From the NCBI GenBank assembly GCA_964555055.1, contig CAZKQW010000001.1, positions 329,196-393,195 on the forward strand: 64,000 nt of DNA, read 5' to 3'. A program made the position numbers and the translations under genes. Under the pieces are notes generated by a model. The model saw only the letters and a list, made by a program, of their open reading frames with translations, was not told the origin of the DNA and made no database searches. Shown in pieces: positions 818-59,045 of the stretch. The stretch is from an uncultured Pseudomonadota bacterium. GTDB taxonomy: Bacteria > UBA10199 > JACPAL01 > GCA-016699445. How positions within the stretch are numbered: the first letter of the stretch is position 1; every line of letters begins with the position of its first letter.

Positions 818-1647
818 TCGTGCTCGCCAGCCGCGCCGAGTTGGACGCCTGGAGGGACCGTGTGACAACCTCTCTCGCCTTCGTCCCGACCATGGGAGCC
901 TTGCACGAAGGCCATGCGTCTTTGTTCCGCGAAGCGAGACGGCATGGAGGCACGGTAATCGTCAGCATCTTCGTCAACCCCACCCAGTTCAACGACCCCA
1001 AGGATTTTGAAAAATACCCGCGCACCTTCGACGCCGACCTCGAAACATGCCGGGCCGCCGGCGTCGACGCCGTGTTCGCGCCGACGGTCGCGGACATGTA
1101 TCCAGCAGGCGCATCCGACCCGTCGATCCCCCTGCCCGCCGTCGCCCTTCCGTTGGAAGGGGCTTTAAGGCCCGGCCATTTCGAAGGCGTCGTGACGGTG
1201 GTCGCCAAACTCTTCCGGCTCGTGCGGCCTACGGCGGCGCTTTTCGGCTTGAAGGATTACCAGCAAGTCCGGGTCATCCAAGAGATGACGCGGAAGCAAC
1301 GGCTTCCCGTGACGATCATCCCCTGCCCCATCGTTCGCTCCACGGAAGGACTCGCCTTGAGCTCGCGCAACGCCCGTCTCTCGCCAGAAGGACTCGTCAA
1401 GGCCTTACGGATTTCCGCAGCGCTCCGTCTCGCCCAAAACCTTTTCGCGAACGGCACGAAGGATGCATCTTCTCTCGAAGGCCGGTTACGGGATTTCCTC
1501 TCCCAAGATTCGGCCCTCAAGATAGACGCGGTGGACGTCGTCGACGCGGAAACGCTGCGGACCCCCCGCCCGGGGAAGCCCCTCTTGGTGGCCGTGGCGG
1601 TGTTCGTGGAGGGCGTCCGCTTAATTGACAATTGTCTTCTCGGATGA
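814..1647 (+). CDS. panC: pantoate--beta-alanine ligase
   Basis: 'FVPTMGALHEGHASL' and 'IFVNPTQFNDPKDFEKYPR' are typical PanC motifs. Translationally coupled to panB. Confidence 0.92.
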   Translation: MIVLASRAELDAWRDRVTTSLAFVPTMGALHEGHASLFREARRHGGTVIVSIFVNPTQFNDPKDFEKYPRTFDADLETCRAAGVDAVFAPTVADMYPAGASDPSIPLPAVALPLEGALRPGHFEGVVTVVAKLFRLVRPTAALFGLKDYQQVRVIQEMTRKQRLPVTIIPCPIVRSTEGLALSSRNARLSPEGLVKALRISAALRLAQNLFANGTKDASSLEGRLRDFLSQDSALKIDAVDVVDAETLRTPRPGKPLLVAVAVFVEGVRLIDNCLLG

Positions 1648-1669
1648 ATTCAACTAGGCAGGCCCGCTT

Positions 1670-2935
1670 ATGACTTCTTTGAAGGCCTATGCCGCTGATT
1701 TCATCCTCCCGATCACCTCAAAACCGCTCGCTAACGCCGCGATCGTGGTGGAAGGCCGCGAGATCATCGACATCGACGCGAAGGAAGAAATCGTCCAACG
1801 CTACCCGTCGCTCGACCTGGAAGATTGCGGGCAATCCGTCCTCATGCCGGGACTCGTCAACGCCCACACCCATTTAAACCTCCTGTTTTTCGACGCGGGC
1901 AACAGGGACGGCGCGAAGCCGGCCTTCTTTGAATCCCTCATGGGAAGTTGGCTCTTTCAAAAAGGCCAGACCCTCACCGACAGGCGCCAAGCCTTGGAGG
2001 AGGGCCTCCAGCAATTGGCGCGCTCTGGCACCACGACGGCGGGCGACACCGGCCAGTTCTTCGGCCTCGTGCCCCAAGCCATCAACGCGCCCCTGCGCAT
2101 GGCGCTTTTTCCCGAAATCCTCACGGGCGGGGACAACCAAATTCAGGAAGCGTACGAGGCGGCGTTCACCCAAGTCGACGAGATCCAGGCGTCGCGCGTG
2201 AATAAGGTCACGGCGGGACTTGCCCCCTACGCGGGCTACACGCTTTCCAAACACCTCCTGAAGATCGTCTCGCAACAAGCCTCACAAACGCCCTTAAAGA
2301 TCCATGCGGCCGAGACGTTTGCCGAGATGCAGTTCTTCTACGAGTCGTCGGGGGAAATCGCGGAAAAACTCTTCCCCCAGATGGGTTGGGCCGATCACCT
2401 CCCCCCTCCCCATCGGAAAACGCCCGTCCAATACCTCCATTCGATCGGCGTCTTGGATGCGGCTCCGGCTTTGATCGGCGGCAACCAGCTTTCCGAGACC
2501 GATCTGGAGCTCATCGCGAAGACCCGGACGAAGATCATCCATTCGCCGCGCTACAACGCCCACTTTAACCTCGGCAAACCTCCCCTAAAAAAACTCCGGG
2601 AACTCGGAGTCCCCGTCGCCCTAGGCACGAACGCCTTGGCTTCGCTGTATTCCCTCTCCCTCTGGGACGAAATGAGGTTCCTCAAGGACCGTTCCCCGGA
2701 GAACGACGCCCCGACACCGAAGGACATCCTAGAGATGGCGACGATCGAGGGAGCCAAAGCCTTGAGCCTGGATCGTAAGATCGGTTCATTGGAGAAGGGA
2801 AAGGACGCCGACTTCATCGTCGTCCACATTCCGAAGGACATGGCGGCCGGCGACTTGGCGACCTGGCTCATCGATCATGTCACCGCCCGGGAGATCACCT
2901 CCGTGTTCGTCGAAGGGAAGAAAGTAAAGCTCTAA
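1670..2935 (+). CDS. amidohydrolase-family protein (MtaD/deaminase-like)
   Basis: 'LMPGLVNAHTHLNL' metal-binding HxH motif. The 421-aa length and C-terminal 'GSLEKGKDADFIV' are typical of the amidohydrolase superfamily. Confidence 0.7.
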   Translation: MTSLKAYAADFILPITSKPLANAAIVVEGREIIDIDAKEEIVQRYPSLDLEDCGQSVLMPGLVNAHTHLNLLFFDAGNRDGAKPAFFESLMGSWLFQKGQTLTDRRQALEEGLQQLARSGTTTAGDTGQFFGLVPQAINAPLRMALFPEILTGGDNQIQEAYEAAFTQVDEIQASRVNKVTAGLAPYAGYTLSKHLLKIVSQQASQTPLKIHAAETFAEMQFFYESSGEIAEKLFPQMGWADHLPPPHRKTPVQYLHSIGVLDAAPALIGGNQLSETDLELIAKTRTKIIHSPRYNAHFNLGKPPLKKLRELGVPVALGTNALASLYSLSLWDEMRFLKDRSPENDAPTPKDILEMATIEGAKALSLDRKIGSLEKGKDADFIVVHIPKDMAAGDLATWLIDHVTAREITSVFVEGKKVKL

Positions 2936-3396
2936 TGGCTGAGAAAGGCGAAAAGGTCGTTTGCTCCAACCGCCAAGCGGGTTTTCGCTACGAGCTCCTC
3001 GACAAGATCGAAGCGGGCCTGATGCTCGTCGGCAGCGAAGTGAAATCCCTGCGGGACGGCCACGCCCAGCTCACCGACGCTTACGTGACGCACCATCAGG
3101 GCGAGTTCTTCCTCTATAAGGCTCACATTTCGCATTACCCGCCGGCCAACCAATTCAACCACGATCCCACGCGCACGCGGAAACTCCTGCTGCATCACCA
3201 TCAAATCGAGCACCTGATGGGAAAAATCAAAGAGCGCGGCCTCACACTCATTCCCACGAAGATCTACTTTAAGGCCGGAAAAGCGAAATGCGAAATCGCC
3301 CTCGCCCGCGGCAAGAAAACGATCGACAAGAGGGAGACGATCAAAAAAAGGGATCAGAAACGGGAAATTGAGAGGACGTTAAAAAGACACCGATAG
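2935..3396 (+). CDS. smpB: SsrA-binding protein
   Basis: 'NRQAGFRYELLDKIEAGLMLVGSEVKSLR' and 'LIPTKIYFKAGKAKCEIALARGKK' match SmpB along the full length. Confidence 0.92.
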   Translation: MAEKGEKVVCSNRQAGFRYELLDKIEAGLMLVGSEVKSLRDGHAQLTDAYVTHHQGEFFLYKAHISHYPPANQFNHDPTRTRKLLLHHHQIEHLMGKIKERGLTLIPTKIYFKAGKAKCEIALARGKKTIDKRETIKKRDQKREIERTLKRHR

Positions 3397-5950: not shown

Positions 5951-7703
<1,753 letters not shown>

Positions 7704-7708
7704 AAACT

Positions 7709-8341
7709 ATGTCAGAAAATTCCAACTCCACGTTTCTCCTGAAACGTTTGATGTCCATCACGGGCCTGTTGCCCGTGGGGGGCTTCCTCCTCCAACACCT
7801 CTTCGGAAATTCTTTCATCTTCACTTCCGCTGAAACCTGGAACGAACACGCGGAGTATCTCACATCGCTTCCGATGGTGCTCTTGATAGAATTGGGCGCC
7901 ATCTACCTACCAATTTTCCTCCACGCCGGTTTAGGCGTGGCCATCATCTATAAGAGCCAGAACAATTTCACGAGTTACAGCCTCTTCCGGAATTGGATGT
8001 TTTTTTTCCAGCGCCTGACCGGCGTCGTCGCCTTGGCCTTCATCGCGACCCATAGCTATACGACGCGCATCACGAGCTACGTGCAAGGCTGGGAAATGAC
8101 GGCGGCTCACATGACCCATGTGCTCCAAGACCCGGCTTGGTTTTGGTTCTACATCGTCGGCGTCGTGAGCGTATGCTTTCACTTCGCGAACGGCATATGG
8201 AGCTTCCTCATCACCTGGGGCATCACCATCGGCCGCAAAGCCCAACAGATCTCGTCCGCGTTGACGATGGGATTGTTCGTCCTTTTATCCCTGTGGGCCG
8301 TCGCGATCCTCATTAAATTTTCGTCGTTACCTCTTTCATAG
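7709..8341 (+). CDS. sdhC: succinate dehydrogenase/fumarate reductase cytochrome b subunit (single 5-TM type)
   Basis: A 210-aa polytopic membrane protein with conserved His residues, immediately upstream of sdhA-sdhB. Confidence 0.75.
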   Translation: MSENSNSTFLLKRLMSITGLLPVGGFLLQHLFGNSFIFTSAETWNEHAEYLTSLPMVLLIELGAIYLPIFLHAGLGVAIIYKSQNNFTSYSLFRNWMFFFQRLTGVVALAFIATHSYTTRITSYVQGWEMTAAHMTHVLQDPAWFWFYIVGVVSVCFHFANGIWSFLITWGITIGRKAQQISSALTMGLFVLLSLWAVAILIKFSSLPLS

Positions 8342-8348
8342 GACACTT

Positions 8349-10097
8349 ATGGCAGCTCCAAAAATTATCGTTGTGGGTGGTGGTCTGGCGGGCTTGATGA
8401 CGGTCATCAAGGCCTGCGAATCGGGGGCCGCCGTCGATCTCTTCTCCGTGGTCCCGGTCAGGCGTTCCCATTCCGTCTGCGCCCAAGGCGGCATCAACGC
8501 CGCCGTCAACACTAAGGGCGAAGGCGACTCCACCTACCAACATTTCGACGACACGATCTACGGCGGCGACTTCCTCGCCAACCAGACTCCCGTGAAGAAC
8601 ATGTGCGAAGCGGCACCGGGCATCATCTTCCTCCTCGACCGCATGGGCGTCATGTTCAACCGCACGCCCGAAGGCCTGATCGACTTCCGCCGCTTCGGCG
8701 GCACCCTCTTCCACCGCACGGCCTTCGCCGGGGCGACGACGGGCCAACAACTCCTGTACGCCTTGGACGAGCAAGTGCGCCGCTTCGAGTCCGAAGGGAA
8801 AGTGAAGAAATACGAGTCTTGGGAATGCATTTCCATGGTCCAAGACAACCAACTCAATTGCCGCGGCATCGTCGCCATGAACATGAATACGCTGGAGACC
8901 GTCGCCTTCAAAGGTGACGCCGTCGTGCTCGCCACCGGAGGCCCTGGCCTTATCTACGGGCGCAGCACCAATTCCGCGATTTGCACCGGAAGCGCCGTGA
9001 GCGCCGCCTACCAGCAAGGAGCCCACTACGCGAACGGAGAATTCATCCAAGTGCACCCGACGGCGATCCCGGGCGAGGACAAGCATCGCTTGATCTCTGA
9101 ATCCGTCCGTGGCGAAGGCGGACGCGTCTGGGTCTATAAAGACGGCAAGCCCTGGTACTTCCTGGAGGATTGGTACCCTAAGTACGGAAACCTTGTCCCT
9201 CGTGACGTCGCCACGCGCGCCATCTTCAAGATCGTCTACGAACATAAGCTGGGCATCGACGGGAAAGCCCAAGTCTACCTCGATGTTTCCCATATCGATC
9301 CGAAACGCCTCCAAGAGAAATTGGGCGGCGTCCTGGAAATTTACGAGAAATTCGTCGGCCAAGACCCGAAGAAGGTCCCGATGCGCGTCTTCCCGGCCGT
9401 CCACTATTCTATGGGCGGGCTTTGGGTGGACTTCAACCAGATGACGAACATCCCCGGACTCTTCGCCGCGGGAGAATGCGAATACCAATACCACGGAGCC
9501 AACCGGTTGGGCGCCAATTCCCTCGTTTCCTGCATCTACGGAGGCATGGTCGCCGGGAAGACGGCGGTCAAATACGCGAAGGACCAGACGGGAACGAACT
9601 CTAATGACGAAGCTGTCTTCTCCGAAGCCTTAAGACGCGAGGAGGATTTGACGAAGAAGCTCTTGGCGTCTTCCGGCAAGACCAACCCTCACCACATCCA
9701 TGAGGAATTAGGCGACGTGATGACCGAAAACGTCACCGTCATCCGTTATAACGACAAGCTGAAGAAAACCGACGAGAAGCTCCAAGAACTGATCGAGAAG
9801 TATAAGGACATCGTCCTGCCCGACACGACCGACTGGGCCAACCACGAGATCCTCTTCGCGCGCCAGCTGAAGAACATGCTGGAATTGGCCCGCGTCATCA
9901 CCTTGGGCGCGTGGCGTCGGAATGAAAGCCGTGGCGCGCACTACAAGCCGGATTTCCAGGACCGCGACGACGCCAATTGGCAGAAGACGACCAAGGCGAA
10001 GTTCACGGGCCACGGGAACGAACCCGAATTTAGCTACGAGGAGATCGACCTGCAGTACATTAAGCCTCGACCGCGCCGTTACGATATGAAATCATAA
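8349..10097 (+). CDS. sdhA: succinate dehydrogenase flavoprotein subunit
   Basis: 'VVGGGLAGL' FAD motif, 'RSHSVCAQGGINAA' with the covalent-FAD His, and 'HYSMGGLWVD'. Confidence 0.95.
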   Translation: MAAPKIIVVGGGLAGLMTVIKACESGAAVDLFSVVPVRRSHSVCAQGGINAAVNTKGEGDSTYQHFDDTIYGGDFLANQTPVKNMCEAAPGIIFLLDRMGVMFNRTPEGLIDFRRFGGTLFHRTAFAGATTGQQLLYALDEQVRRFESEGKVKKYESWECISMVQDNQLNCRGIVAMNMNTLETVAFKGDAVVLATGGPGLIYGRSTNSAICTGSAVSAAYQQGAHYANGEFIQVHPTAIPGEDKHRLISESVRGEGGRVWVYKDGKPWYFLEDWYPKYGNLVPRDVATRAIFKIVYEHKLGIDGKAQVYLDVSHIDPKRLQEKLGGVLEIYEKFVGQDPKKVPMRVFPAVHYSMGGLWVDFNQMTNIPGLFAAGECEYQYHGANRLGANSLVSCIYGGMVAGKTAVKYAKDQTGTNSNDEAVFSEALRREEDLTKKLLASSGKTNPHHIHEELGDVMTENVTVIRYNDKLKKTDEKLQELIEKYKDIVLPDTTDWANHEILFARQLKNMLELARVITLGAWRRNESRGAHYKPDFQDRDDANWQKTTKAKFTGHGNEPEFSYEEIDLQYIKPRPRRYDMKS

Positions 10098-50475: not shown

Positions 50476-51306
50476 TCAAGGCTGAGCCAAGAGACGTAGG
50501 ATATGCTTCACTTGATCAACCATCTGGAAAGAGTACTTGGCCATCTGATCACTGATTAACCCTGAGGCCAAAAAATACATCAGAACACCTAAAACACCTC
50601 GTAGAATGAAACCCAACTCCCATACATGGATGGCTGGAGCCGCCTTATTCATGACGGCCATGACCACATCCGCAATGAAGATAGTGATCAAAATGGGGGC
50701 CGTCAGCTGTAAGGCCAAGACTAAGACATATCCCGACGTTTTCATGAAATCGTCCAACATCATCAGTACGTTCGGCTGGGCCTTAGGAAATTCCAAAATC
50801 GGCAGGAGTTCGTAGCTTTCGATCACCGCCTTCAAAAAAATCACATGTCCGCCTAAGGACAGGAAGATGGCGATGCCGAAGAGGTAGCTGAAATTCCCAA
50901 AAATCGAACTCTCCGCCGCCAAGGCCGGGATCAAAAGACGCGCCTGAGCCGCGCCGCGTTGGTTGTCCACCATCGCCCCGGCCGCTTCGAATGCATGAAA
51001 CATCAGCGAGGCCGCAAGCCCGATTGCCAACCCGTAGAACATCTCCTTCATGTAGATCATAAGCGTGAGCACCGGGGCGACGGGCACCGAGGCTTTATTT
51101 TCCGGAGCTAAGAACGGATACAAGAAGACCGTCATCGTCACGGCGAACCCCATGCGGATCATATTCGGAACAGGCTTACCGACGAGGAATGGGATGACGC
51201 TGGACATGACGATGAGACGCGCCATGATCAGGCCGCTGAACGAAATCAGGAAGCTCCAATCCGGCACGCCGACGATTTGGAAGGCTTTTTCGAAGGTATC
51301 GTGCAT
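50476..51306 (-). CDS. sctT: T3SS export-apparatus protein SctT (FliR/YscT family)
   Basis: 276-aa polytopic protein following sctR-sctS. FliR/SctT-type helices, e.g. 'AAGAMVDNQRGAAQA'. Confidence 0.85.
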   Translation of the reverse strand: MHDTFEKAFQIVGVPDWSFLISFSGLIMARLIVMSSVIPFLVGKPVPNMIRMGFAVTMTVFLYPFLAPENKASVPVAPVLTLMIYMKEMFYGLAIGLAASLMFHAFEAAGAMVDNQRGAAQARLLIPALAAESSIFGNFSYLFGIAIFLSLGGHVIFLKAVIESYELLPILEFPKAQPNVLMMLDDFMKTSGYVLVLALQLTAPILITIFIADVVMAVMNKAAPAIHVWELGFILRGVLGVLMYFLASGLISDQMAKYSFQMVDQVKHILRLLAQP

Positions 51307-51319
51307 GTTCTCTCATCAC

Positions 51320-51347
51320 TTAGTGGGACATAACGCTCTCCCACTAA
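51320..51347 (-). other. perfect 9-bp stem / 10-nt loop hairpin between sctS and sctT
   Basis: ttagtggga (51320-51328) pairs with tcccactaa (51339-51347). Located in the 80-nt sctS-sctT gap. Confidence 0.5.
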
Positions 51348-51386
51348 AACCCCTCTGAAGTTACAGAAATACGGAAATAGTTACGT

Positions 51387-51653
51387 CTATTTAATAACAG
51401 TCCCGAACGAATCCATGAGGGAGTTGGTAAAATTCACCAATTGTACCATCGTCCAAGGACCGGTGATCACCAACATGACGATGACGGCCACCAGCTTGGG
51501 CACAAAGGTCAGCGTCTGCTCCTGGATCTGTGTCGTCGCCTGGACCAAGCTGACCGCCAAACCGACCAGCATCGCCGCCATGACCGTAGGCGCCGTCAGG
51601 ATGAGGGTTAAGTACAAGGCCTGCTTCGTAATCGAGATGACGTAAGATTCCAT
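51387..51653 (-). CDS. sctS: T3SS export-apparatus protein SctS (FliQ/YscS family)
   Basis: 88 aa with two TM helices. 'LVQATTQIQEQTLTFVPKL' is the FliQ/SctS signature. Confidence 0.9.
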   Translation of the reverse strand: MESYVISITKQALYLTLILTAPTVMAAMLVGLAVSLVQATTQIQEQTLTFVPKLVAVIVMLVITGPWTMVQLVNFTNSLMDSFGTVIK

Positions 51654-51668
51654 TTTTAAATGATACTC

Positions 51669-52448
51669 CTAAACATAACCCATCACGAGACCTTTCGCGA
51701 TTAAATGCCAGCCGTCCACCATAACGAAGAGGAGCAGCTTAAACGGCAAGGCAATCGTCACTGGCGAGACTTGGAACATGCCTAACGACAATAAGATGTT
51801 CGTCACGACGATATCGACGACTAGAAATGGCATGAAGATGATGAAGCCGATTTGAAAGGCCTCCGAGAGCTCCGAGATGACGAAGGAAGGCACCAAGACC
51901 TGAAAGTCGGTTTGCAGAACGGAATCCTTATCTTCGGGCGAACGCATTTTACGGGCGAGATTAAGGAAAAGGTCCGTTTCCTTCGGGTGGGCATGCTTGG
52001 CCAGGAACTTCTTCATCGGGTCCTTGGCTTCACCCAATCCCTTCACGAGGAGGTTGACGGTTACCTGCGAGAGCAAGGGTTGGTTCGTCCCTTGTTGCAA
52101 AGTCTGCTGGGTCGATTTATAGATTTCCAGACCCACCGGCGTCATGATGTAGATCGTCATGATGAGCGCCAAGCCCGTGATGACGGTGTTCGGAGGGATT
52201 TGCTGGGTTCCCAACCCGTTGCGCACCAGCCCTAAGACGACGCTGATCTTCACGAAAGATGTCGACATCATTACGACGATCGGCAAAAGTCCCAAGCCCA
52301 CCAGAACGAAAAGCAGGACTAAGGGTTGCGATAGGCTCTGTTCGGGTTGGTTCCCGACGACGCTCGGCACGACCGCCGTCTGCGCGGATACGACCGCCGG
52401 CAAGGCGGTCAGAAAAAAGAAAAATAGAAAAGACTTAGCTTTTTTCAA
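51669..52448 (-). CDS. sctR: T3SS export-apparatus protein SctR (FliP/YscR family) with FliP-like N-terminal signal peptide
   Basis: 'MSTSFVKISVVLGLVRNGLGTQQIPPN' and 'FLVVDIVVTNILLSLGM' are FliP/SctR signatures. The N-terminus 'MKKAKSFLFFFFLTALPAVVSAQT' looks like a cleavable signal peptide. Confidence 0.9.
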   Translation of the reverse strand: MKKAKSFLFFFFLTALPAVVSAQTAVVPSVVGNQPEQSLSQPLVLLFVLVGLGLLPIVVMMSTSFVKISVVLGLVRNGLGTQQIPPNTVITGLALIMTIYIMTPVGLEIYKSTQQTLQQGTNQPLLSQVTVNLLVKGLGEAKDPMKKFLAKHAHPKETDLFLNLARKMRSPEDKDSVLQTDFQVLVPSFVISELSEAFQIGFIIFMPFLVVDIVVTNILLSLGMFQVSPVTIALPFKLLLFVMVDGWHLIAKGLVMGYV

Positions 52449-52734
52449 TGGCTCTCCCCTCTTCTTGCGGGATCTCCGCGATTAAATTCACGGACGCTTC
52501 CGAAACCCCTAAAGCCAAATAACGGCCCGACAATTTCACCAGATAGACCGAGGATTTCGCCGAAATCGGGATCCGGTCGATGACGTCCAACCAAGAATGC
52601 TTGCGCATTTTCGAGAACCTCAAGCGTGGCAACGCGTACTTGAGGAAGACGAAAGCCAAGGCGATGACGACCGCTAAGACAACCAGCATCTTAATGAACA
52701 TCCAGGTGAAATCGGGAGCCGTGGCGGTTTCCAT
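52435..52734 (-). CDS. FliO-like small single-pass membrane protein
   Basis: TM helix 'MLVVLAVVIALAFVFL', then 'LDVIDRIPISAKSSVYLVKLSGRYLALGVSEASVNLIAEI'. This follows the FliO pattern (TM, then ...V.V.gr.llLGVt...i.lL). Sits directly upstream of sctR, overlapping it by 14 nt. Confidence 0.65.
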   Translation of the reverse strand: METATAPDFTWMFIKMLVVLAVVIALAFVFLKYALPRLRFSKMRKHSWLDVIDRIPISAKSSVYLVKLSGRYLALGVSEASVNLIAEIPQEEGRAIEKS

Positions 52735-52735
52735 A

Positions 52736-53242
52736 TTATTTAAAGAGTTTCAAAACGCGCACGCCCAAGCGGCCATCCACGACGACAAGTTCGGCCTTCG
52801 CGATCACTTTTCCGGAAACGACGATATCCAAAGGATCGGCGGGTTTTCGGTCGAATTCCACGATATCTCCCGCCTTCAAATCCAAAAGATCCTTCACGGT
52901 CGCCGATTTTCGTCCCATCATCGCCGTCAATTGGACCGGAACGTCCGGCGCCAAATGTAAAACGTCCTCCGCCAAGGGTTGGCCTTGATGATCGAGAGGA
53001 ACGAGGTCTTCCGCATAGAAAGTCTCCCCTACTTCCGTAGCGTCCTCTAAAGGCAACGGGACGGAAGGGGCCGGCATTTCGTGCATGAGAGTTTTTTCCA
53101 AGCTCGAATCCGGGAACCCTTGGTCAGGCGCGATGGAAGGATCAAAGTGATTCGGATCCGGTTGCGCTTCCGAATTGAAGTCGTCGCTAAAGCCATCCAA
53201 CCCGTCAATATCATCCAAACTATAGGGATCTTTCTCGGACAT
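52736..53242 (-). CDS. SpoA-domain sorting-platform/C-ring protein (FliN / SctQ-C-like)
   Basis: C-terminal 'VPVQLTAMMGRKSATVKDLLDLKAGDIVEFDRKPADPLDIVVSGKVIAKAELVVVDGRLGVRV' is a SpoA (FliN/YscQ) domain. The N-terminus is acidic and probably disordered. Confidence 0.85.
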   Translation of the reverse strand: MSEKDPYSLDDIDGLDGFSDDFNSEAQPDPNHFDPSIAPDQGFPDSSLEKTLMHEMPAPSVPLPLEDATEVGETFYAEDLVPLDHQGQPLAEDVLHLAPDVPVQLTAMMGRKSATVKDLLDLKAGDIVEFDRKPADPLDIVVSGKVIAKAELVVVDGRLGVRVLKLFK

Positions 53243-53275
53243 AAATCTCTCCTTCGTTCATTGCCATTTCGCTGA

Positions 53276-54184
53276 TTAAAATAAAGCTTGGATAGCCTCG
53301 ACTCGAATTCTCACTTTATCGGCATCATTGACGAGAGTCCCGACGATCTCGCCATGTTGGCCTAACCCCACGCGCAAAGGAATTTTTCCAACGACTTGGC
53401 GCCCTCGAAGGCGTGCGGAGCTTTCCAATAAAATCACGTCCCCCGACTCTAACGCGTTCACGTCGCCCGCTTTTAGGGAAACGCGACCGATTTCCGCCCA
53501 GAGGGACGTCGAGACATCCTCATAATTCCGGACTCGGGCCGATAGGTATTCCCGATCCGCGGCCGTCTCCTCAACGGACTCTAAAATGGACCCTGGCACG
53601 TAAATCCTCACGAAACCCGACTTCTTGCCGAAAGTCACACGAAAATAGAGGGAAACAAAATCGGATTTTTGCGTTTGAAGACGTTCGGCCAACTCATCGC
53701 TCGAGCCATACAGAGCTTCGAGACGAAAATGAAATCTCGCCGACGTACCTGATTTCTCAAAAATCATTGCCAGAACTTTCAAAATCAAAAACGAAAGAAC
53801 ACCATCCTCGATCTCGGTCAAACCGCGCAAAGCGTTCGGTAATTCGCCAGAGCCTCCCATAAGCTTATCGACCGACCAAAAGGCCAGCAAGGGATCGATC
53901 TCGGCCACTAACTTATCGGTCGAAGGATTGAGGCCAAGAGCGGCGAAAATTCCCTGAGGCGGTAGGCGTTTCACCAAGTCTGATTGAATACACACATCAA
54001 TCTTTTCTCTTTTAATCAATACACTCTCACCGAGCTCTTTAGTGAGAAGCTGCGAAATATGCGTCGCCAATTTTTGAGAAAAACCGAGGCGCGGGAGGCA
54101 TGCTACGGCATCTTGTACGAGACGGGCGTCTTTTTGCGAATATTGGGGAAGCAGATCGAATGGGAAAGGCTTAATTTGGCTCAT
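53276..54184 (-). CDS. sctQ: sorting-platform protein SctQ (FliM/YscQ-like) with C-terminal SpoA domain
   Basis: 302 aa. C-terminal 'LWAEIGRVSLKAGDVNALESGDVILLE...IPLRVG' SpoA domain. Located between the ruler and the FliN-like gene. Confidence 0.75.
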   Translation of the reverse strand: MSQIKPFPFDLLPQYSQKDARLVQDAVACLPRLGFSQKLATHISQLLTKELGESVLIKREKIDVCIQSDLVKRLPPQGIFAALGLNPSTDKLVAEIDPLLAFWSVDKLMGGSGELPNALRGLTEIEDGVLSFLILKVLAMIFEKSGTSARFHFRLEALYGSSDELAERLQTQKSDFVSLYFRVTFGKKSGFVRIYVPGSILESVEETAADREYLSARVRNYEDVSTSLWAEIGRVSLKAGDVNALESGDVILLESSARLRGRQVVGKIPLRVGLGQHGEIVGTLVNDADKVRIRVEAIQALF

Positions 54185-54189
54185 GAATT

Positions 54190-55098
54190 TTAGGAAAATA
54201 TCACATTGAGAGACGAGACTACAATGCCTTTTTCCTCCAAACTCTTTGTAATCTCCGCCTTTTGCGACTGGAAGAGATTCCTCACCGCATCGGAGTGGGT
54301 GATGAAGGTCGCCATGACTTTTCCTTCTTTGACACGAACCCTCAAACGTAAACCTTGAAACACATTTTCCTTCAACTGCAGCTCCATCTCCTTATCCCCA
54401 TCGGTTTTCGTCATGATACGGGCGTATTGCACCACCTGGTCGAGGACGGCTTTATTCAAAGCGCGCGGCAGTTGCGCGTTTTTAACTTCGGTATTCCCCG
54501 GTGTCGTACCGGCTTGAGGCACATCGATATGAAAAGCGGTTTTATCGCTGCGCTGTGGTTTGGGCTCAGCCGCTTGGGTGCCTGCTTTGTTGGTTATAAA
54601 ACCCTTCTGTCGACGCGACTGTTGGTTCATGCCGCTTTCCGCGCTTCCGTGGCCACCCTGGCCGCTTTTACCGCCTTGACCCGATTGGCCGTTCCCTTCC
54701 CCTTGTCCTTTGCGCCCCTCCTCGCGGCCATCCGAGGATTCACGACCTACAACTTTTTTCTCCGCTTGGCGCGCGCGCGCGGCACCGTCGCCCCGGGAAT
54801 GCACATTTTTCTTCTCGTCTGAATCCTGTTCCTTCTCTTGCAACTTCTCCTGAAAGCTTTCCTTTTCCTTGCCGAACTTTTCTTGCTGAGAAGCCGCGGG
54901 TTTCACCGCTTCGCGGGTGGCCGTCGTCGCGTTCGAGAGATTGGGATTGTTATTCAACTGGAACTGCCGATCCTCCATCACCTTGTCGAAGGCGGATTTC
55001 TGGGTATTCCGATCGGAAGCGGGGTTACGCACGTCATTGCGCGCGCGAGTGACTTCGCGGTTATAGTCCCGCCGGGATTCGCCGACGCGATCACTCAT
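54190..55098 (-). CDS. sctP: needle/hook-length-control protein (SctP position) with FliK-type C-terminal domain
   Basis: Disordered Gly/Gln/Lys-rich centre ('GQGEGNGQSGQGGKSGQGGHG'). C-terminal 'EMELQLKENVFQGLRLRVRVKEGKVMATFITHSDAVRNLFQSQKAEITKSLEEKGIVVSSLNV' fits the FliK Flg_hook pattern. Confidence 0.65.
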   Translation of the reverse strand: MSDRVGESRRDYNREVTRARNDVRNPASDRNTQKSAFDKVMEDRQFQLNNNPNLSNATTATREAVKPAASQQEKFGKEKESFQEKLQEKEQDSDEKKNVHSRGDGAARARQAEKKVVGRESSDGREEGRKGQGEGNGQSGQGGKSGQGGHGSAESGMNQQSRRQKGFITNKAGTQAAEPKPQRSDKTAFHIDVPQAGTTPGNTEVKNAQLPRALNKAVLDQVVQYARIMTKTDGDKEMELQLKENVFQGLRLRVRVKEGKVMATFITHSDAVRNLFQSQKAEITKSLEEKGIVVSSLNVIFS

Positions 55099-55624
55099 AA
55101 GCGGCCGACCTTTCGTTCTGGTGGTGCTGCATGCCCTTCAGTTGATGGATGACGTTTCCGAGTTCGTCCATTTCCTTTTCCTCTTCCCTCGAAATCTCCT
55201 TCTGGATCTTCTTTCTCCAGAGGTCCTTGTGTTTTTCCATCACGCGCACTTCTTTGACCGCATCCACGTAATCGCGCTTCGCCCTCTTCAACCGGATCTC
55301 GCACTCCTCGATGTGGCGCTTTTGGTCCTCGATCTCCTTCTCTTTGTCCTTCTCGTCGTCCTCGAGCTTCCTTAAGTAGTTCATCCGGATATGGCCCTCG
55401 CGGGCTTGCGACTCGCCGGCTAAGAGCTTTTTATGCATGTCTTGACGGCATTCTTTTCTTTTGCGGATAATTTCTTCCTTTTCCTCTTCTAATTTTTTCA
55501 GCTTCTTCTTTGCGTCTTCCAGGGCTTTAAAGGCCTTCGCAAGGGCGATCTCGGCCTTCTGCTTCGCCCTCTGCTTCATGATCAAGAGGGGCTGCAGACG
55601 GTATTTGAGGAGCGCCTTTTTCAT
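55091..55624 (-). CDS. sctO: T3SS stalk protein SctO (FliJ/YscO family)
   Basis: 177-aa all-coiled-coil Lys/Glu-rich protein directly downstream of the ATPase gene. Confidence 0.7.
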   Translation of the reverse strand: MKKALLKYRLQPLLIMKQRAKQKAEIALAKAFKALEDAKKKLKKLEEEKEEIIRKRKECRQDMHKKLLAGESQAREGHIRMNYLRKLEDDEKDKEKEIEDQKRHIEECEIRLKRAKRDYVDAVKEVRVMEKHKDLWRKKIQKEISREEEKEMDELGNVIHQLKGMQHHQNERSAAYE

Positions 55625-55634
55625 GGGTTAACCC

Positions 55635-56954
55635 CTACGAGAACATGGCCTTCAGCTGGGCGACGGACTCCTCGAAGTCGATCTTTTCGTCCACGCGTTG
55701 CTTCAGGAACGTATTCACCTCTTCGATCTTCTCGATCGCGTAATCGACCTTAGGATCGCTTCCCGACTCATAGGCGCCGATCAAGATCAGGTCCCGCTCC
55801 TTTTCATAGGAAGACACAACTTCCCTCAGTTTACGCGCTGCCTCCAAGTGCTCCTCGTCCACAACGGCGCTCATGACCCGGCTGACGCTCTCCGAAACAT
55901 CGATGGCCGGGTAATGCCCGCGGCTCGCCAAATCGCGCGATAAGACGATGTGTCCGTCCAAGATGGAACGAACTTCGTCCGCCACCGGCTCGTTCATGTC
56001 GTCCCCAGAAACCAGTACCGTGTAAAATGCCGTGATAGAACCCTTGTCGGAGTTTCCGGACCTCTCAAGCAACCGCGGCAACGTGGAAAAAACCGACGGC
56101 GTAAAGCCTTGGCGCGCGGGAGGCTCTCCCACCGCCAAGCCAATCTCGCGCAGAGCGCGTGCAAAGCGCGTGACGGAGTCCATCATCAATAAAACTTTTT
56201 TTCCCCGGTCTCGGAAGTATTCCGCGATGGCCGTCGCGGCATAAGCGGCCTTAGCACGTACCAAAGAAGGCTGATCGGACGTCGAAACCACCACGACGGA
56301 CCGGCGTAATCCCTCTTCGCCGAGATCTTGCTCGAGGAAGTCCCGGAGCTCGCGACCGCGTTCTCCGATCAGCCCAATCACGTTGATGTCGGCGTCGGTG
56401 TTCCGGGCGATCATACCCATCGTCGTACTTTTGCCTACGCCTGCAGCGGCGAAAAGTCCGACGCGTTGCCCTTCTCCAGTCGTAAGTATCGCATCGATCG
56501 CTTTCACACCGACCGAAATCGGACTTTTCACGCGACGTCGTGTCAACGGGTCCGGAGGCGTGTTGTGCACCGGATAAAACTCTTGAGAGACGAGAGGACC
56601 TTTCGTATCTGTATCCATCGGGTCCCCTAAACCGTCCAAAATGCGCCCTAAAAGTTGTTCACCGACGGGAACCTTCAGACAATCTCCCGTCGAAATAACT
56701 TCGCTTCCCGGGGCGATGCCTTCGAGATTGCCCAAAGGCATGAGCAAAACCTCGTTATCGCGGAACCCTACGACTTCAGCTTTAATCTTATGAACCTGAC
56801 CGAGAGGTTCGATCATGCAGAGATCGCCCACCTTCACACCTGGAATCACGGCCTTAGCGACCAGACCGACCAGCTCCGTAACCCGACCCTTGATCTGGAC
56901 CGTCGTGGTCTGGTTGAGATTTTTCTGGTATTTTTCAAAATTGATGACGGACAT
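55635..56954 (-). CDS. sctN: T3SS ATPase SctN (FliI/YscN family)
   Basis: 'GLFAAAGVGKST' Walker A, 'VLLMMDSVTRFA' Walker B, 'GSITAFYTVLV'. Length 439 aa. Confidence 0.95.
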   Translation of the reverse strand: MSVINFEKYQKNLNQTTTVQIKGRVTELVGLVAKAVIPGVKVGDLCMIEPLGQVHKIKAEVVGFRDNEVLLMPLGNLEGIAPGSEVISTGDCLKVPVGEQLLGRILDGLGDPMDTDTKGPLVSQEFYPVHNTPPDPLTRRRVKSPISVGVKAIDAILTTGEGQRVGLFAAAGVGKSTTMGMIARNTDADINVIGLIGERGRELRDFLEQDLGEEGLRRSVVVVSTSDQPSLVRAKAAYAATAIAEYFRDRGKKVLLMMDSVTRFARALREIGLAVGEPPARQGFTPSVFSTLPRLLERSGNSDKGSITAFYTVLVSGDDMNEPVADEVRSILDGHIVLSRDLASRGHYPAIDVSESVSRVMSAVVDEEHLEAARKLREVVSSYEKERDLILIGAYESGSDPKVDYAIEKIEEVNTFLKQRVDEKIDFEESVAQLKAMFS

Positions 56955-57580
56955 TAGAGACCCAACGCGTTTCTGATGGCTTTGAGTTGTAGCTCGAGGC
57001 GGGCATCGACCGTCCCGAGCTCCGTCTCCACGATACAGCCTCCGGGGCCCACGGACTCGTCCTCACGCACGGAAATCGACCGTCTTTGATCCAGGGCACT
57101 CACCAACTCCTGCTCCCGCGCCTTCACGGTTTCCCAATCCTTCGGATGGATCTTCACGGTGATTTTCTTACCGGAAGATTCCTCGATGGTTTTCTTGATA
57201 ACTTCGACGACCGCACCCTTTTCGACGGCGCGACCGATCACTTTTTCGGCAATGTCCATCACCATACGGATGATTTGAGGTTCGGCGTCCTGGAGCATCT
57301 TTTCCTTGGCGGTCGCCGCCTCCATCAACTTCTGAGACCATGTGCCGCGGCCTTCTTCCAAGCCATCCTCGTAACCTCTTTGGCGCTCGTCTTCGTAATC
57401 ACGCTCAGCATCCTGGAGGACCTCACGGGCTTTCGCTTTAATATTTTCCGCATCCTGCTTGGCTTGACGAAGAAGAGCTGTGGCTTGATCCGCCGCCTTC
57501 ATCGCACGAAATTTCACCACGGGCCCACTGCTTAAAAGAGGTTCGAATTCCGGATCGAATTGGAGTCGCTTAATGATCAT
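56954..57580 (-). CDS. sctL: T3SS stator protein SctL (FliH/YscL family)
   Basis: 208 aa. Coiled-coil N-terminal half, then the FliH-type C-terminus 'GGCIVETELGTVDARLELQLKAI'. 1-nt overlap with sctN. Confidence 0.8.
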   Translation of the reverse strand: MIIKRLQFDPEFEPLLSSGPVVKFRAMKAADQATALLRQAKQDAENIKAKAREVLQDAERDYEDERQRGYEDGLEEGRGTWSQKLMEAATAKEKMLQDAEPQIIRMVMDIAEKVIGRAVEKGAVVEVIKKTIEESSGKKITVKIHPKDWETVKAREQELVSALDQRRSISVREDESVGPGGCIVETELGTVDARLELQLKAIRNALGL

Positions 57581-57614: not shown

Positions 57615-58502
57615 CTACCGGGCTTTCCAATAGCGGCGAATCCTCTTTTGGTCCGCTAAATCTACGACCGTCGCCAAGATACTTTCCCTCTCACGCTGAA
57701 GTAAGCCTTTTTGTTCCGAGCGGTTTTCAAAATAATCTCGTTTTAAGCGATATCCCATCAAAGGAGGAAATTTTTGAAAAATCCACTCCATCCATTTTTC
57801 GTCGTCGATGGAAGTAGCTTTCATGAAAACCGCTATCCCGATGTCGTGCATGATCTCATCGTGGTTTTTTTCATCTAAGGAAAGAGAGAGAATGTTTTTT
57901 TGAGCCTTCGACCGCTCAACTTCCGAAAATTTGGATCCCGGCATCTCGATCCGCCGCCGGAGATCCGTCGCCTCCTTCAGCGAGAACCGCGCGAAAAAAG
58001 GTTTCAGGATTTTATGCGGGACGCCTTGGAAGGCTTTGATAATTTCCCGAACACCCAACTCGTGGAAAAGCACTTTGAGCTCGTCTTCCTGCAGCCAGCT
58101 CATGTTTTCAAAGCCAAAACTACCTTGGGCGGGTACTTTTTCGGGCAAGTCGATTTTCCGCTCGACGAGCCTCCAGACGATCTCGGAAAGTTCCGCAGAC
58201 ATGCGACTCTCCTTTCCGGACCAACGTTCATTGACAAACTTCAAGACGCGAGGAGATTCTCCCTCTAGTTTTTCTAAAATCCATTCGGGGTGGATTTCGT
58301 TAAAAGGGGATGTTTTTGAGGATTGGGCGATCTTTAAGAGTTTCTCTTTGATTTGACGTCGAGTGAGCTTCGCGCTTGGGTTCGCGGGTTCTTGAGCCGT
58401 TGCCGTCAAGAGCTCTTCGTCGGAAGAAAATTTGAAGAGGGATCGGCCTTTTTCGCCGTCGAGAAGACAAAGGGCCGAAATCATTTCATGGCGGAGTGAC
58501 AT
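57615..58502 (-). CDS. FliG_C-like protein at the SctK/FliG position
   Basis: 'FENMSWLQEDELKVLFHELGVREIIKAFQGVPHKILKPFFARFSLKEATDLRRRIE...SEVERSKAQKNIL' resembles the FliG middle/C-terminal pattern. Sits immediately upstream of sctL. Confidence 0.5.
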   Translation of the reverse strand: MSLRHEMISALCLLDGEKGRSLFKFSSDEELLTATAQEPANPSAKLTRRQIKEKLLKIAQSSKTSPFNEIHPEWILEKLEGESPRVLKFVNERWSGKESRMSAELSEIVWRLVERKIDLPEKVPAQGSFGFENMSWLQEDELKVLFHELGVREIIKAFQGVPHKILKPFFARFSLKEATDLRRRIEMPGSKFSEVERSKAQKNILSLSLDEKNHDEIMHDIGIAVFMKATSIDDEKWMEWIFQKFPPLMGYRLKRDYFENRSEQKGLLQRERESILATVVDLADQKRIRRYWKAR

Positions 58503-58508
58503 ACGGAT

Positions 58509-59045
58509 TTAGCCGCTGGCGCCTTGTTGAAGGACCTGCTTCGTAGAGGACGCGCCGGTTTCGACGACTTTACTCGTTATCTCGAGTTGGAATACCTTTT
58601 GGCTCAAACCCGCCTGCATGGCTAGCAATTCAGCCGGCGTAAACTTCTGACCCGACGTCGCCAGGGTGATCATGTCTTCCATTTGATGCGCTCCGCGATT
58701 GACTTCCGTAAGGATGTCCATGACTTTCCCATGCGTGCGGATCTCCTGTCCTGCGCGAATTTCCGTCGGCGAAATGTCCAAGCCTTGGGCCGAAATCGCC
58801 CCGATTTTCTTCTCAGGGACTAAACCGAAAGATTCGAGAACTTGGCTGTTGAGCTTACCATGGGAAGGCGAAGAAGAGGTCGACACCGTTGTGGCTTCTA
58901 CTTGACTGGCCAAAACTTGGGCGAACGGAGATTCCTGCGTCTGCCCTACAATGGAGCCCGAGTTTTGACTGAGCCCGCCGGTCCCTGTTTCAGAGACCAT
59001 CTTTTCGGTCAGTGTGCTGGCAATTTGTGAAACAATTTCCGACAT
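58509..59045 (-). CDS. sctI: inner-rod candidate, SctI (YscI/PrgJ)-like C-terminus
   Basis: C-terminal 'ELLAMQAGLSQKVFQLEITSKVVETGASSTKQVLQQG' parallels YscI '...LMLMQWSLIRITIQEELIAKTAGRMSQNVETLSKGG'. At 178 aa it is longer than typical SctI. Confidence 0.5.
   Translation of the reverse strand: MSEIVSQIASTLTEKMVSETGTGGLSQNSGSIVGQTQESPFAQVLASQVEATTVSTSSSPSHGKLNSQVLESFGLVPEKKIGAISAQGLDISPTEIRAGQEIRTHGKVMDILTEVNRGAHQMEDMITLATSGQKFTPAELLAMQAGLSQKVFQLEITSKVVETGASSTKQVLQQGASG

Follow-up and report, generated by a model that had tools for sequence, protein, structure and literature searches.

FliO and a predicted signal peptide on SctR in a probable non-flagellar type III secretion gene cluster of a wastewater bacterium

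FliO has long been cited as the clearest difference in components between the export gates of flagella and those of virulence type III secretion systems (T3SSs), and in the earlier textbook view it was specific to the flagellum (PMC5542435, PMC5542437). In the stretch of DNA analysed here (64,000 nt, hereafter the window) a FliO-like ORF adjoins the gene of an SctR protein that starts like a FliP precursor. Which kind of machine does such a cluster encode, and how would its export gate be assembled? We consider it likely that the window carries a non-flagellar T3SS cluster of a deep-branching family, closest to the Myxococcota-type systems, which keeps the flagellar way of export-gate assembly; this family is found in uncultured MAGs labelled 'Deltaproteobacteria'. 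On sequence grounds, the cluster of this wastewater bacterium retains two flagellar traits, FliO and a predicted signal peptide on SctR.

The apparatus genes and what they encode

The apparatus genes form a tightly packed run, all on the minus strand (Table 1), in which the flagellar-type gene order G-H-I-J-K-M-N-O-P-Q-R is recognizable. An earlier note on this DNA had described the operon as otherwise injectisome-like, a description that falls short of its content, as FliG_C-, FliM-, FliN- and FliK-type (Flg_hook) genes as well as a sigma-28-like gene are present in flagellar order. On the 3' side of the run follow substrate-sized ORFs and TPR chaperones, reaching position 42863. Past window base 64000 the contig continues with a gene for an FHA/TPR/PEGA SctD-like protein, followed after about 8 kb by the FHIPEP (SctV) gene; in the coordinates of locus L001, SctV (FHIPEP, 709 aa) occupies 1122-3251 and a 719-aa FHA/TPR/PEGA SctD-like protein 7834-9993. 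The window and the 10 kb past its end showed neither sctU nor a gene for the outer-membrane secretin SctC. The FliG_C match in the SctK slot recurs in the relatives L003 and L088.

Table 1. Coordinates of the apparatus genes and of further features in the window
Feature	Position	Strand	Remarks
C-terminal part of SctD-like protein	63345-64000		ORF running off the window end
SctJ-type gene	60830-61894	minus	YscJ-type, short (354 aa), unlike FliF
sigma-28-like gene	59053-59889	minus	
SctI-like gene	58509-59045	minus	
FliG_C-like gene, in SctK slot	57615-58502	minus	FliG_C 30 bits, cut-off 23.3
SctL/FliH gene	56954-57580	minus	
SctN gene	55635-56954	minus	
SctO/FliJ gene	55091-55624	minus	
FliK-type ruler gene (Flg_hook)	54190-55098	minus	
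FliM-like gene	53276-54184	minus	PF02154 FliM 57 bits
FliN-type gene (SctQ C-terminal domain type)	52736-53242	minus	PF01052 76 bits
fliO homologue, 99 aa	52435-52734	minus	PF04347 and TIGR03500
Shine-Dalgarno sequence GGGGAG	52454-52459	minus	5 nt before sctR TTG, within fliO 3' end
sctR (FliP family), precursor of 259 aa, TTG start	51669-52448	minus	PF00813 223 bits
SctR codons 1-22, encoding a predicted Sec signal peptide, MKKAKSFLFFFFLTALPAVVSA	52383-52448	minus	rule-based test
SctR residues 23-41, predicted periplasmic N-tail of the mature protein, QTAVVPSVVGNQPEQSLSQ	52326-52382	minus	phmmer alignments
SctR F205	51836-51838	minus	position of Salmonella FliP F190
sctS/fliQ	51387-51653	minus	PF01313 99 bits; TIGR01402 and TIGR01403 both above cut-off
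sctT/fliR	50476-51306	minus	PF01311 159 bits
Orphan minimal flagellin-family gene, 229 aa	5951-6640	minus	Flagellin_N 65 bits, Flagellin_C 31 bits

Is the cluster then a flagellar or flagellum-derived export apparatus rather than a relative of the injectisome, in which case FliO and a leader-bearing FliP would be expected? Besides the gene order and the sigma-28-like gene, the Pfam matches to FliM, FliN, FliH, FliG_C and Flg_hook, a match to the FliI_clade2 model TIGR03497 (647 bits, cut-off 630), the FliQ model TIGR01402 passing its cut-off and the presence of a flagellin-family gene elsewhere in the window all speak for a flagellar origin. Against it stand the short YscJ-type protein, the FHA (Yop-YscD_cpl) domain of the SctD-like protein, a needle-like gene, TPR chaperones of class-II type next to translocator-sized substrates, and further parts that match YscO-like and HrpE/YscL families best. 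The SctN and SctS models are passed as well, and about 30 kb of sequence contained none of the genes for rod, hook, Mot or FlhF/G proteins.

The flagellin-family gene is separated from the T3SS cluster by about 36 kb and has housekeeping genes as neighbours; no sigma-28-type promoter was seen by eye upstream of it. Its product could be a substrate of the T3SS or belong to a flagellum whose genes lie elsewhere.

FliO and the precursor form of SctR

The 99-aa ORF, to which the earlier note had ascribed the FliO architecture and for which it had proposed a Pfam profile search, does match the FliO profiles of Pfam (PF04347, E=1.2e-11, 45 bits, cut-off 22) and NCBIfam (TIGR03500, E=7.3e-16, 58 bits, cut-off 55.25) and, judged by these matches, is a genuine FliO. 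Its best 19-aa hydrophobic window spans residues 13-31 (mean KD 3.0), placing a TM helix at about residues 11-32. As this helix is flanked by a short acidic N-terminus (charge -2) and by a basic C-terminal stretch (+6), the positive-inside rule predicts an N-out/C-in orientation. In the AF2 model (38 homologues, pLDDT 83.6) a helix at residues 9-42 is followed by a sheet of four strands (49-56, 62-68, 71-77 and 82-88), and this predicted fold matches the published FliO core, which consists of a TM helix and an antiparallel sheet in the cytoplasm (PMC12403147, Fig. 3 legend). Neither a sequence search of the PDB nor Foldseek returned a meaningful match, and no solved FliO structure was found.

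The fliO ATG lies 1 nt past the fliN stop codon, and fliO overlaps the sctR gene directly downstream by 14 nt (52435-52448), in agreement with what had been noted before on coordinates and strand. The position of the sctR Shine-Dalgarno sequence inside the end of fliO suggests that the two genes are translationally coupled. Orthologues of the FliO protein share 78, 77 and 54% identity with it; one of them is annotated as FliO in the closed 2.75-Mb MAG CP064976.1, where the locus has the same layout as the window cluster. The window-clade relative L088 shows the complete layout of the window between the sigma-28 gene and the TPR chaperones, with FliO and a leader-bearing SctR, and shares the PEGA kinase and the FHA-sigma-54 activator as well.

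Sequence of the cluster is found in wastewater and activated-sludge metagenomes. Moreover, four wastewater metatranscriptomes contain contigs of at least 99% identity over the apparatus genes (window 50400-55200), which tile fliN, fliO and sctR including the fliO/sctR junction. This suggests that the T3SS is expressed in situ and makes transcription of the fliO and sctR genes probable, DNA carry-over being possible in contig data of this kind.

Might the FliO-like ORF nevertheless be a decaying relic that has no role in the system? FliO is dispensable in Salmonella when FliP is overproduced (PMC5542437) and has been lost from canonical injectisomes, so that such a fate is conceivable. However, the ORF is intact, tightly spaced between its neighbours, conserved among its orthologues and covered by the metatranscriptome contigs, and nearly all related non-flagellar T3SS loci contain a FliO, all of which pass the Pfam profile. 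We therefore regard the decay of this gene as extremely improbable.

The downstream gene product belongs to the FliP family (Pfam, E=3.5e-66) and starts at a TTG. The N-terminus of this SctR, MKKAKSFLFFFFLTALPAVVSA followed by QT, has a hydrophobic core behind a basic n-region and then a V-S-A site, with the cut predicted after VSA; in the AF2 model residues 2-22 form a helix. Leaders were called here by a simple home-made rule that combines n-, h- and c-region features with a -3/-1 test. By the same rule 97 of the 112 full-length SctR homologues from a large protein search (about 87%) carry a similar leader. Among these homologues, position -1 is Ala in 95 and position +1 Gln in 59, most start at ATG, and a median of 18 residues separates the cut site from the first gate helix. 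The likeness of the SctR N-terminus to the FliP leader, pointed out in the earlier note, is thus borne out by the rule-based test in the window protein as well as in its homologues.

It is also conceivable that this N-terminus is never cleaved, either because translation starts at an internal TTG (codon 16, 244 aa) or because residues 1-22 are kept as a membrane anchor. The public gene call P0002 (244 aa) indeed takes the internal TTG and excludes the leader, and the start that we propose is itself a TTG. Yet the upstream TTG is preceded by the Shine-Dalgarno sequence GGGGAG, whereas none lies ahead of the internal one, and both the upstream TTG and its Shine-Dalgarno sequence are identical in the 91%-identical relative L003 (CP064976.1). 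Compared with this relative, the 22 leader codons have accumulated 5, 4 and 13 substitutions at the first, second and third codon position, respectively, a pattern expected of coding sequence. Leader length, basic n-region, hydrophobic core and an A-x-A site before Gln are kept in the 97 leader-bearing homologues, and the same arrangement is found in FliP, whose cleavage has been demonstrated (PMC5542437, PMC12403130). Both alternatives are thus very unlikely, and we infer that the signal peptide of SctR is cleaved.

Cleavage would leave a mature N-tail of SctR that sits where FliP has a beta-hairpin of the beta-cap. In phmmer searches against the PDB, FliP aligns through the N-terminal region of SctR but SpaP only from query residue 44 on. 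In mature FliP of Salmonella, the beta-cap that covers FliPQR on its periplasmic side is made of beta-hairpins contributed by residues 22-41, and leader and beta-cap have been described together (PMC12403130). By analogy, the SctR tail may contribute to a beta-cap too. The AF2 monomer, in which residues 22-38 are disordered, lends no support to a hairpin, and counts of the pattern 'hydrophobic-Pro-x-hydrophobic' in the tail are noisy, as they also hit the leader, and are of qualitative use only.

Phylogenetic position of SctR and distribution of FliO and the leader

SctR passes the SctR equivalog TIGR01102 (229.7 bits, cut-off 208.6) and NF009438 (249.4 bits, cut-off 179) but fails the FliP equivalog TIGR01103 (194.4 bits, cut-off 217.45), which argues against a flagellar assignment. 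Compared with PDB structures, on the other hand, it scores slightly higher against FliP (150-155 bits) than against SpaP (136-142 bits). Trees were inferred under LG+G4 and LG+C20 PMSF from 80 genomic loci collected with the family profile plus three FliP sequences from the PDB; the reference set stems from a pattern-biased scan and includes few proteobacterial FliP sequences. Six groups were distinguished: flagellar FliP (Firmicutes, one deltaproteobacterium and the PDB sequences), Acidobacteriota non-flagellar, the window clade, Myxococcota-type, Sphingomonas/Caulobacter/Burkholderiales-type, and canonical injectisomes. Look-ups of the genomic context of neighbouring loci confirmed that the neighbouring tree groups are non-flagellar.

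The window clade joins the Myxococcota-type group with support of 93 (LG+G4) and 87/86 (PMSF). SctR of the window is thus sister to the SctR of Myxococcota T3SSs, has FliO in its operon as they do, with FliO adjacent in most members of the group, and lies outside the canonical SctR clade. A constraint that joins the window clade to canonical injectisome SctR proteins only is rejected by the AU test (p-AU 0.0035); a placement of SctR among the FliP and SctR clades had been suggested in the earlier note. Of the outcomes by which that note would have been refuted none came about, the leader being judged by the rule-based test. The AU test does not reject a tree that unites the window clade with the flagellar one (p=0.20), nor one that unites it with the canonical and Sphingomonas-type clades together (p=0.34), so that the trees fix no deep order for SctR. 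While the former value and the PDB scores leave some room for a flagellar affiliation of the cluster, the best trees join SctR to the T3SSs of non-flagellated Myxococcota. Together with the equivalog results and the gene content described above, this makes a flagellar or flagellum-derived export apparatus unlikely, and a non-flagellar T3SS remains the reading that we prefer.

With a local HMM, FliO ORFs were detected in half of the loci (40 of 80), in most cases immediately before fliP/sctR, and all 38 FliO ORFs that were collected (35 from the surveyed loci, the rest being the window ORF and orthologues) pass the Pfam FliO profile. Flagellar and Acidobacteriota loci possess FliO, as do the window clade and the Myxococcota-type group; some members of the Sphingomonas-type group have it about 1 kb upstream of the FliP-family gene, and it is absent from the canonical injectisomes among these loci. 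Leaders were called in 5/6 members of the window clade, 5/5 Acidobacteriota, 9/16 Myxococcota-type and 8/13 flagellar proteins. The earlier note's statement that injectisome SctR proteins lack a leader proved right, as none was called in 28 canonical and 17 Sphingomonas/Caulobacter-type sequences (0/45 together).

The Acidobacteriota non-flagellar T3SS locus L086 combines needle_F, YscJ, YscO, FliO, a 255-aa FliP-family gene, SctS/T/U/V and TPR chaperones. Its needle_F protein has 190 aa, its FliO 170 aa and its SctR a leader, and at 7133-8707 (plus strand) of this locus an FHA (Yop-YscD_cpl) domain is fused to an SctQ/FliMN_C protein. One Myxococcota locus carries FliO-P-Q-R-FlhB. In a Myxococcota MAG (L087, 8811-12203) the other T3SS genes lie apart from a fliO-sctRST-flhB block, which directly follows rpoA-rplQ at the end of the ribosomal protein operon.

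But do FliO and the leader depend on one another? At a stricter leader cut-off of 3.5, 20 loci have both, 20 have FliO without leader, 2 have a leader without FliO and 34 have neither, and several Myxococcota-type systems and, where FliO is present, all those of the Sphingomonas type possess FliO without a leader. Only 5-6 phylogenetically independent contrasts are available, in which no signal of coupling was seen; with so few, we do not claim a functional coupling. The most suitable reading of the co-occurrence is that ancestral traits were retained in common; statistically it is inseparable from shared ancestry. Likewise, the positions by which Salmonella FliP contacts FliO (F150, R152, S156 and P158, also R143) fail to separate FliO-bearing from FliO-less SctR proteins. 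Alone among the positions compared, that of F190 tracks FliO, being Phe (rarely Tyr) in every FliO-associated clade and Tyr in 28/28 canonical sequences, a pattern that may be phylogenetic inertia only. In Salmonella FliP this is the site of the fliO-bypass mutation F190L; SctR of the window has F205 here.

In August 2025 FliO was reported in vT3SS operons of Myxococcota, including both T3SSs of M. xanthus, and of several Pseudomonadota orders (PMC12403147, PNAS). The flagellum-specific status that the earlier note had ascribed to FliO is therefore outdated; the core point is known and the window locus is a further example of it. What is new is that an uncultured lineage and an Acidobacteriota lineage carry FliO in a non-flagellar T3SS, and that, as far as sequence comparison can tell, a predicted FliP-type leader and the N-tail persist together with FliO in three deep non-flagellar groups. 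SctR leaders are not discussed in PMC12403147, in which the term 'SctR' occurs 0 times. The exceptions of 2025 to the long-cited component difference are thus extended to Acidobacteriota and to a widespread, probably transcribed, uncultured lineage from wastewater.

Proposed assembly of the export gate and comparison with known systems

[quoted passage not shown] For the window genes, the analysis directly supports homology and gene arrangement, their conservation, the place of SctR in the trees and probable transcription, and it is from their homology and identical arrangement that we infer the corresponding steps here. According to this proposal, fliO would be translated in coupling with sctR and yield a bitopic membrane protein, N-out and with a cytoplasmic beta core, that assists the assembly of SctR as a chaperone or scaffold. 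By analogy with FliO of Salmonella, it would protect SctR molecules that have just been inserted, serve as a scaffold while they oligomerise into the SctR5-S4-T1 gate and then leave the finished complex. SctR would be made as a precursor whose 22-residue Sec leader is cut after VSA, thereby exporting a tail of about 19 residues to the periplasm as the equivalent of the FliP beta-cap segment. Canonical injectisomes would have lost FliO, the leader and the N-tail.

A bolder version of this proposal, which we consider possible but doubtful, holds that the machine of this lineage is a living intermediate between flagellum and injectisome, with a gate that is both built and capped the flagellar way. 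If so, FliO would assist SctR assembly, the leader would be Sec-cleaved and a FliP-like N-terminal beta-cap would template the first axial subunit, a scheme that would fit the FliG/FliM/FliN-type parts, the FliK-type ruler, the sigma-28 factor and perhaps the orphan flagellin as a substrate. FliO, leader and N-tail would then be ancestral to non-flagellar T3SSs as a whole, and their joint loss would fall on the stem lineage of canonical injectisomes. As a testable set of traits, the three may help to put in order the simplifications that the flagellar export gate underwent in injectisomes, and tractable models such as the M. xanthus T3SS* are indicated for studying the roles of FliO and the leader outside flagella.

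How does the window cluster, read as a non-flagellar T3SS, compare with known systems? It is closest to the FliO-containing T3SSs of Myxococcota and Pseudomonadota, with which it shares a Pfam FliO beside a FliP-family gene in a non-flagellar apparatus operon (PMC12403147) and, for Myxococcota, the sister position of SctR. It differs from them in its host, an uncultured wastewater lineage labelled 'Deltaproteobacteria', and in being richer in flagellar-type parts (FliG_C, FliM, FliK-type, sigma-28).

With the FliO-FliP pair of Salmonella and E. coli it has in common the order fliN-fliO-fliP-fliQ-fliR and a bitopic FliO with a cytoplasmic beta core, as predicted here. In these species the FliP leader has about 21-22 residues, the cut lies before Gln and about 20 residues of periplasmic tail come next, and the window SctR is predicted to be alike. 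However, the window SctR fails the FliP equivalog cut-off and passes that of SctR, and the Trp38 that stabilises the beta-cap in FliP is replaced by Leu/Val. FliO of Salmonella and E. coli has about 121-125 aa, whereas that of the window is minimal with its 99 aa. Moreover, instead of rod, hook and motor genes the cluster has SctJ, SctD-like, needle-like and translocator/chaperone genes. Finally, canonical SctR proteins (YscR, SpaP/Spa24, EscR, HrcR), which have about 215-225 residues and neither leader, N-tail nor FliO partner (0/28), differ in all of these respects from the window SctR, which nevertheless shares with them the FliP-family fold, the presumed role in an SctR5S4T1 gate and the matches to NF009438 and TIGR01102.
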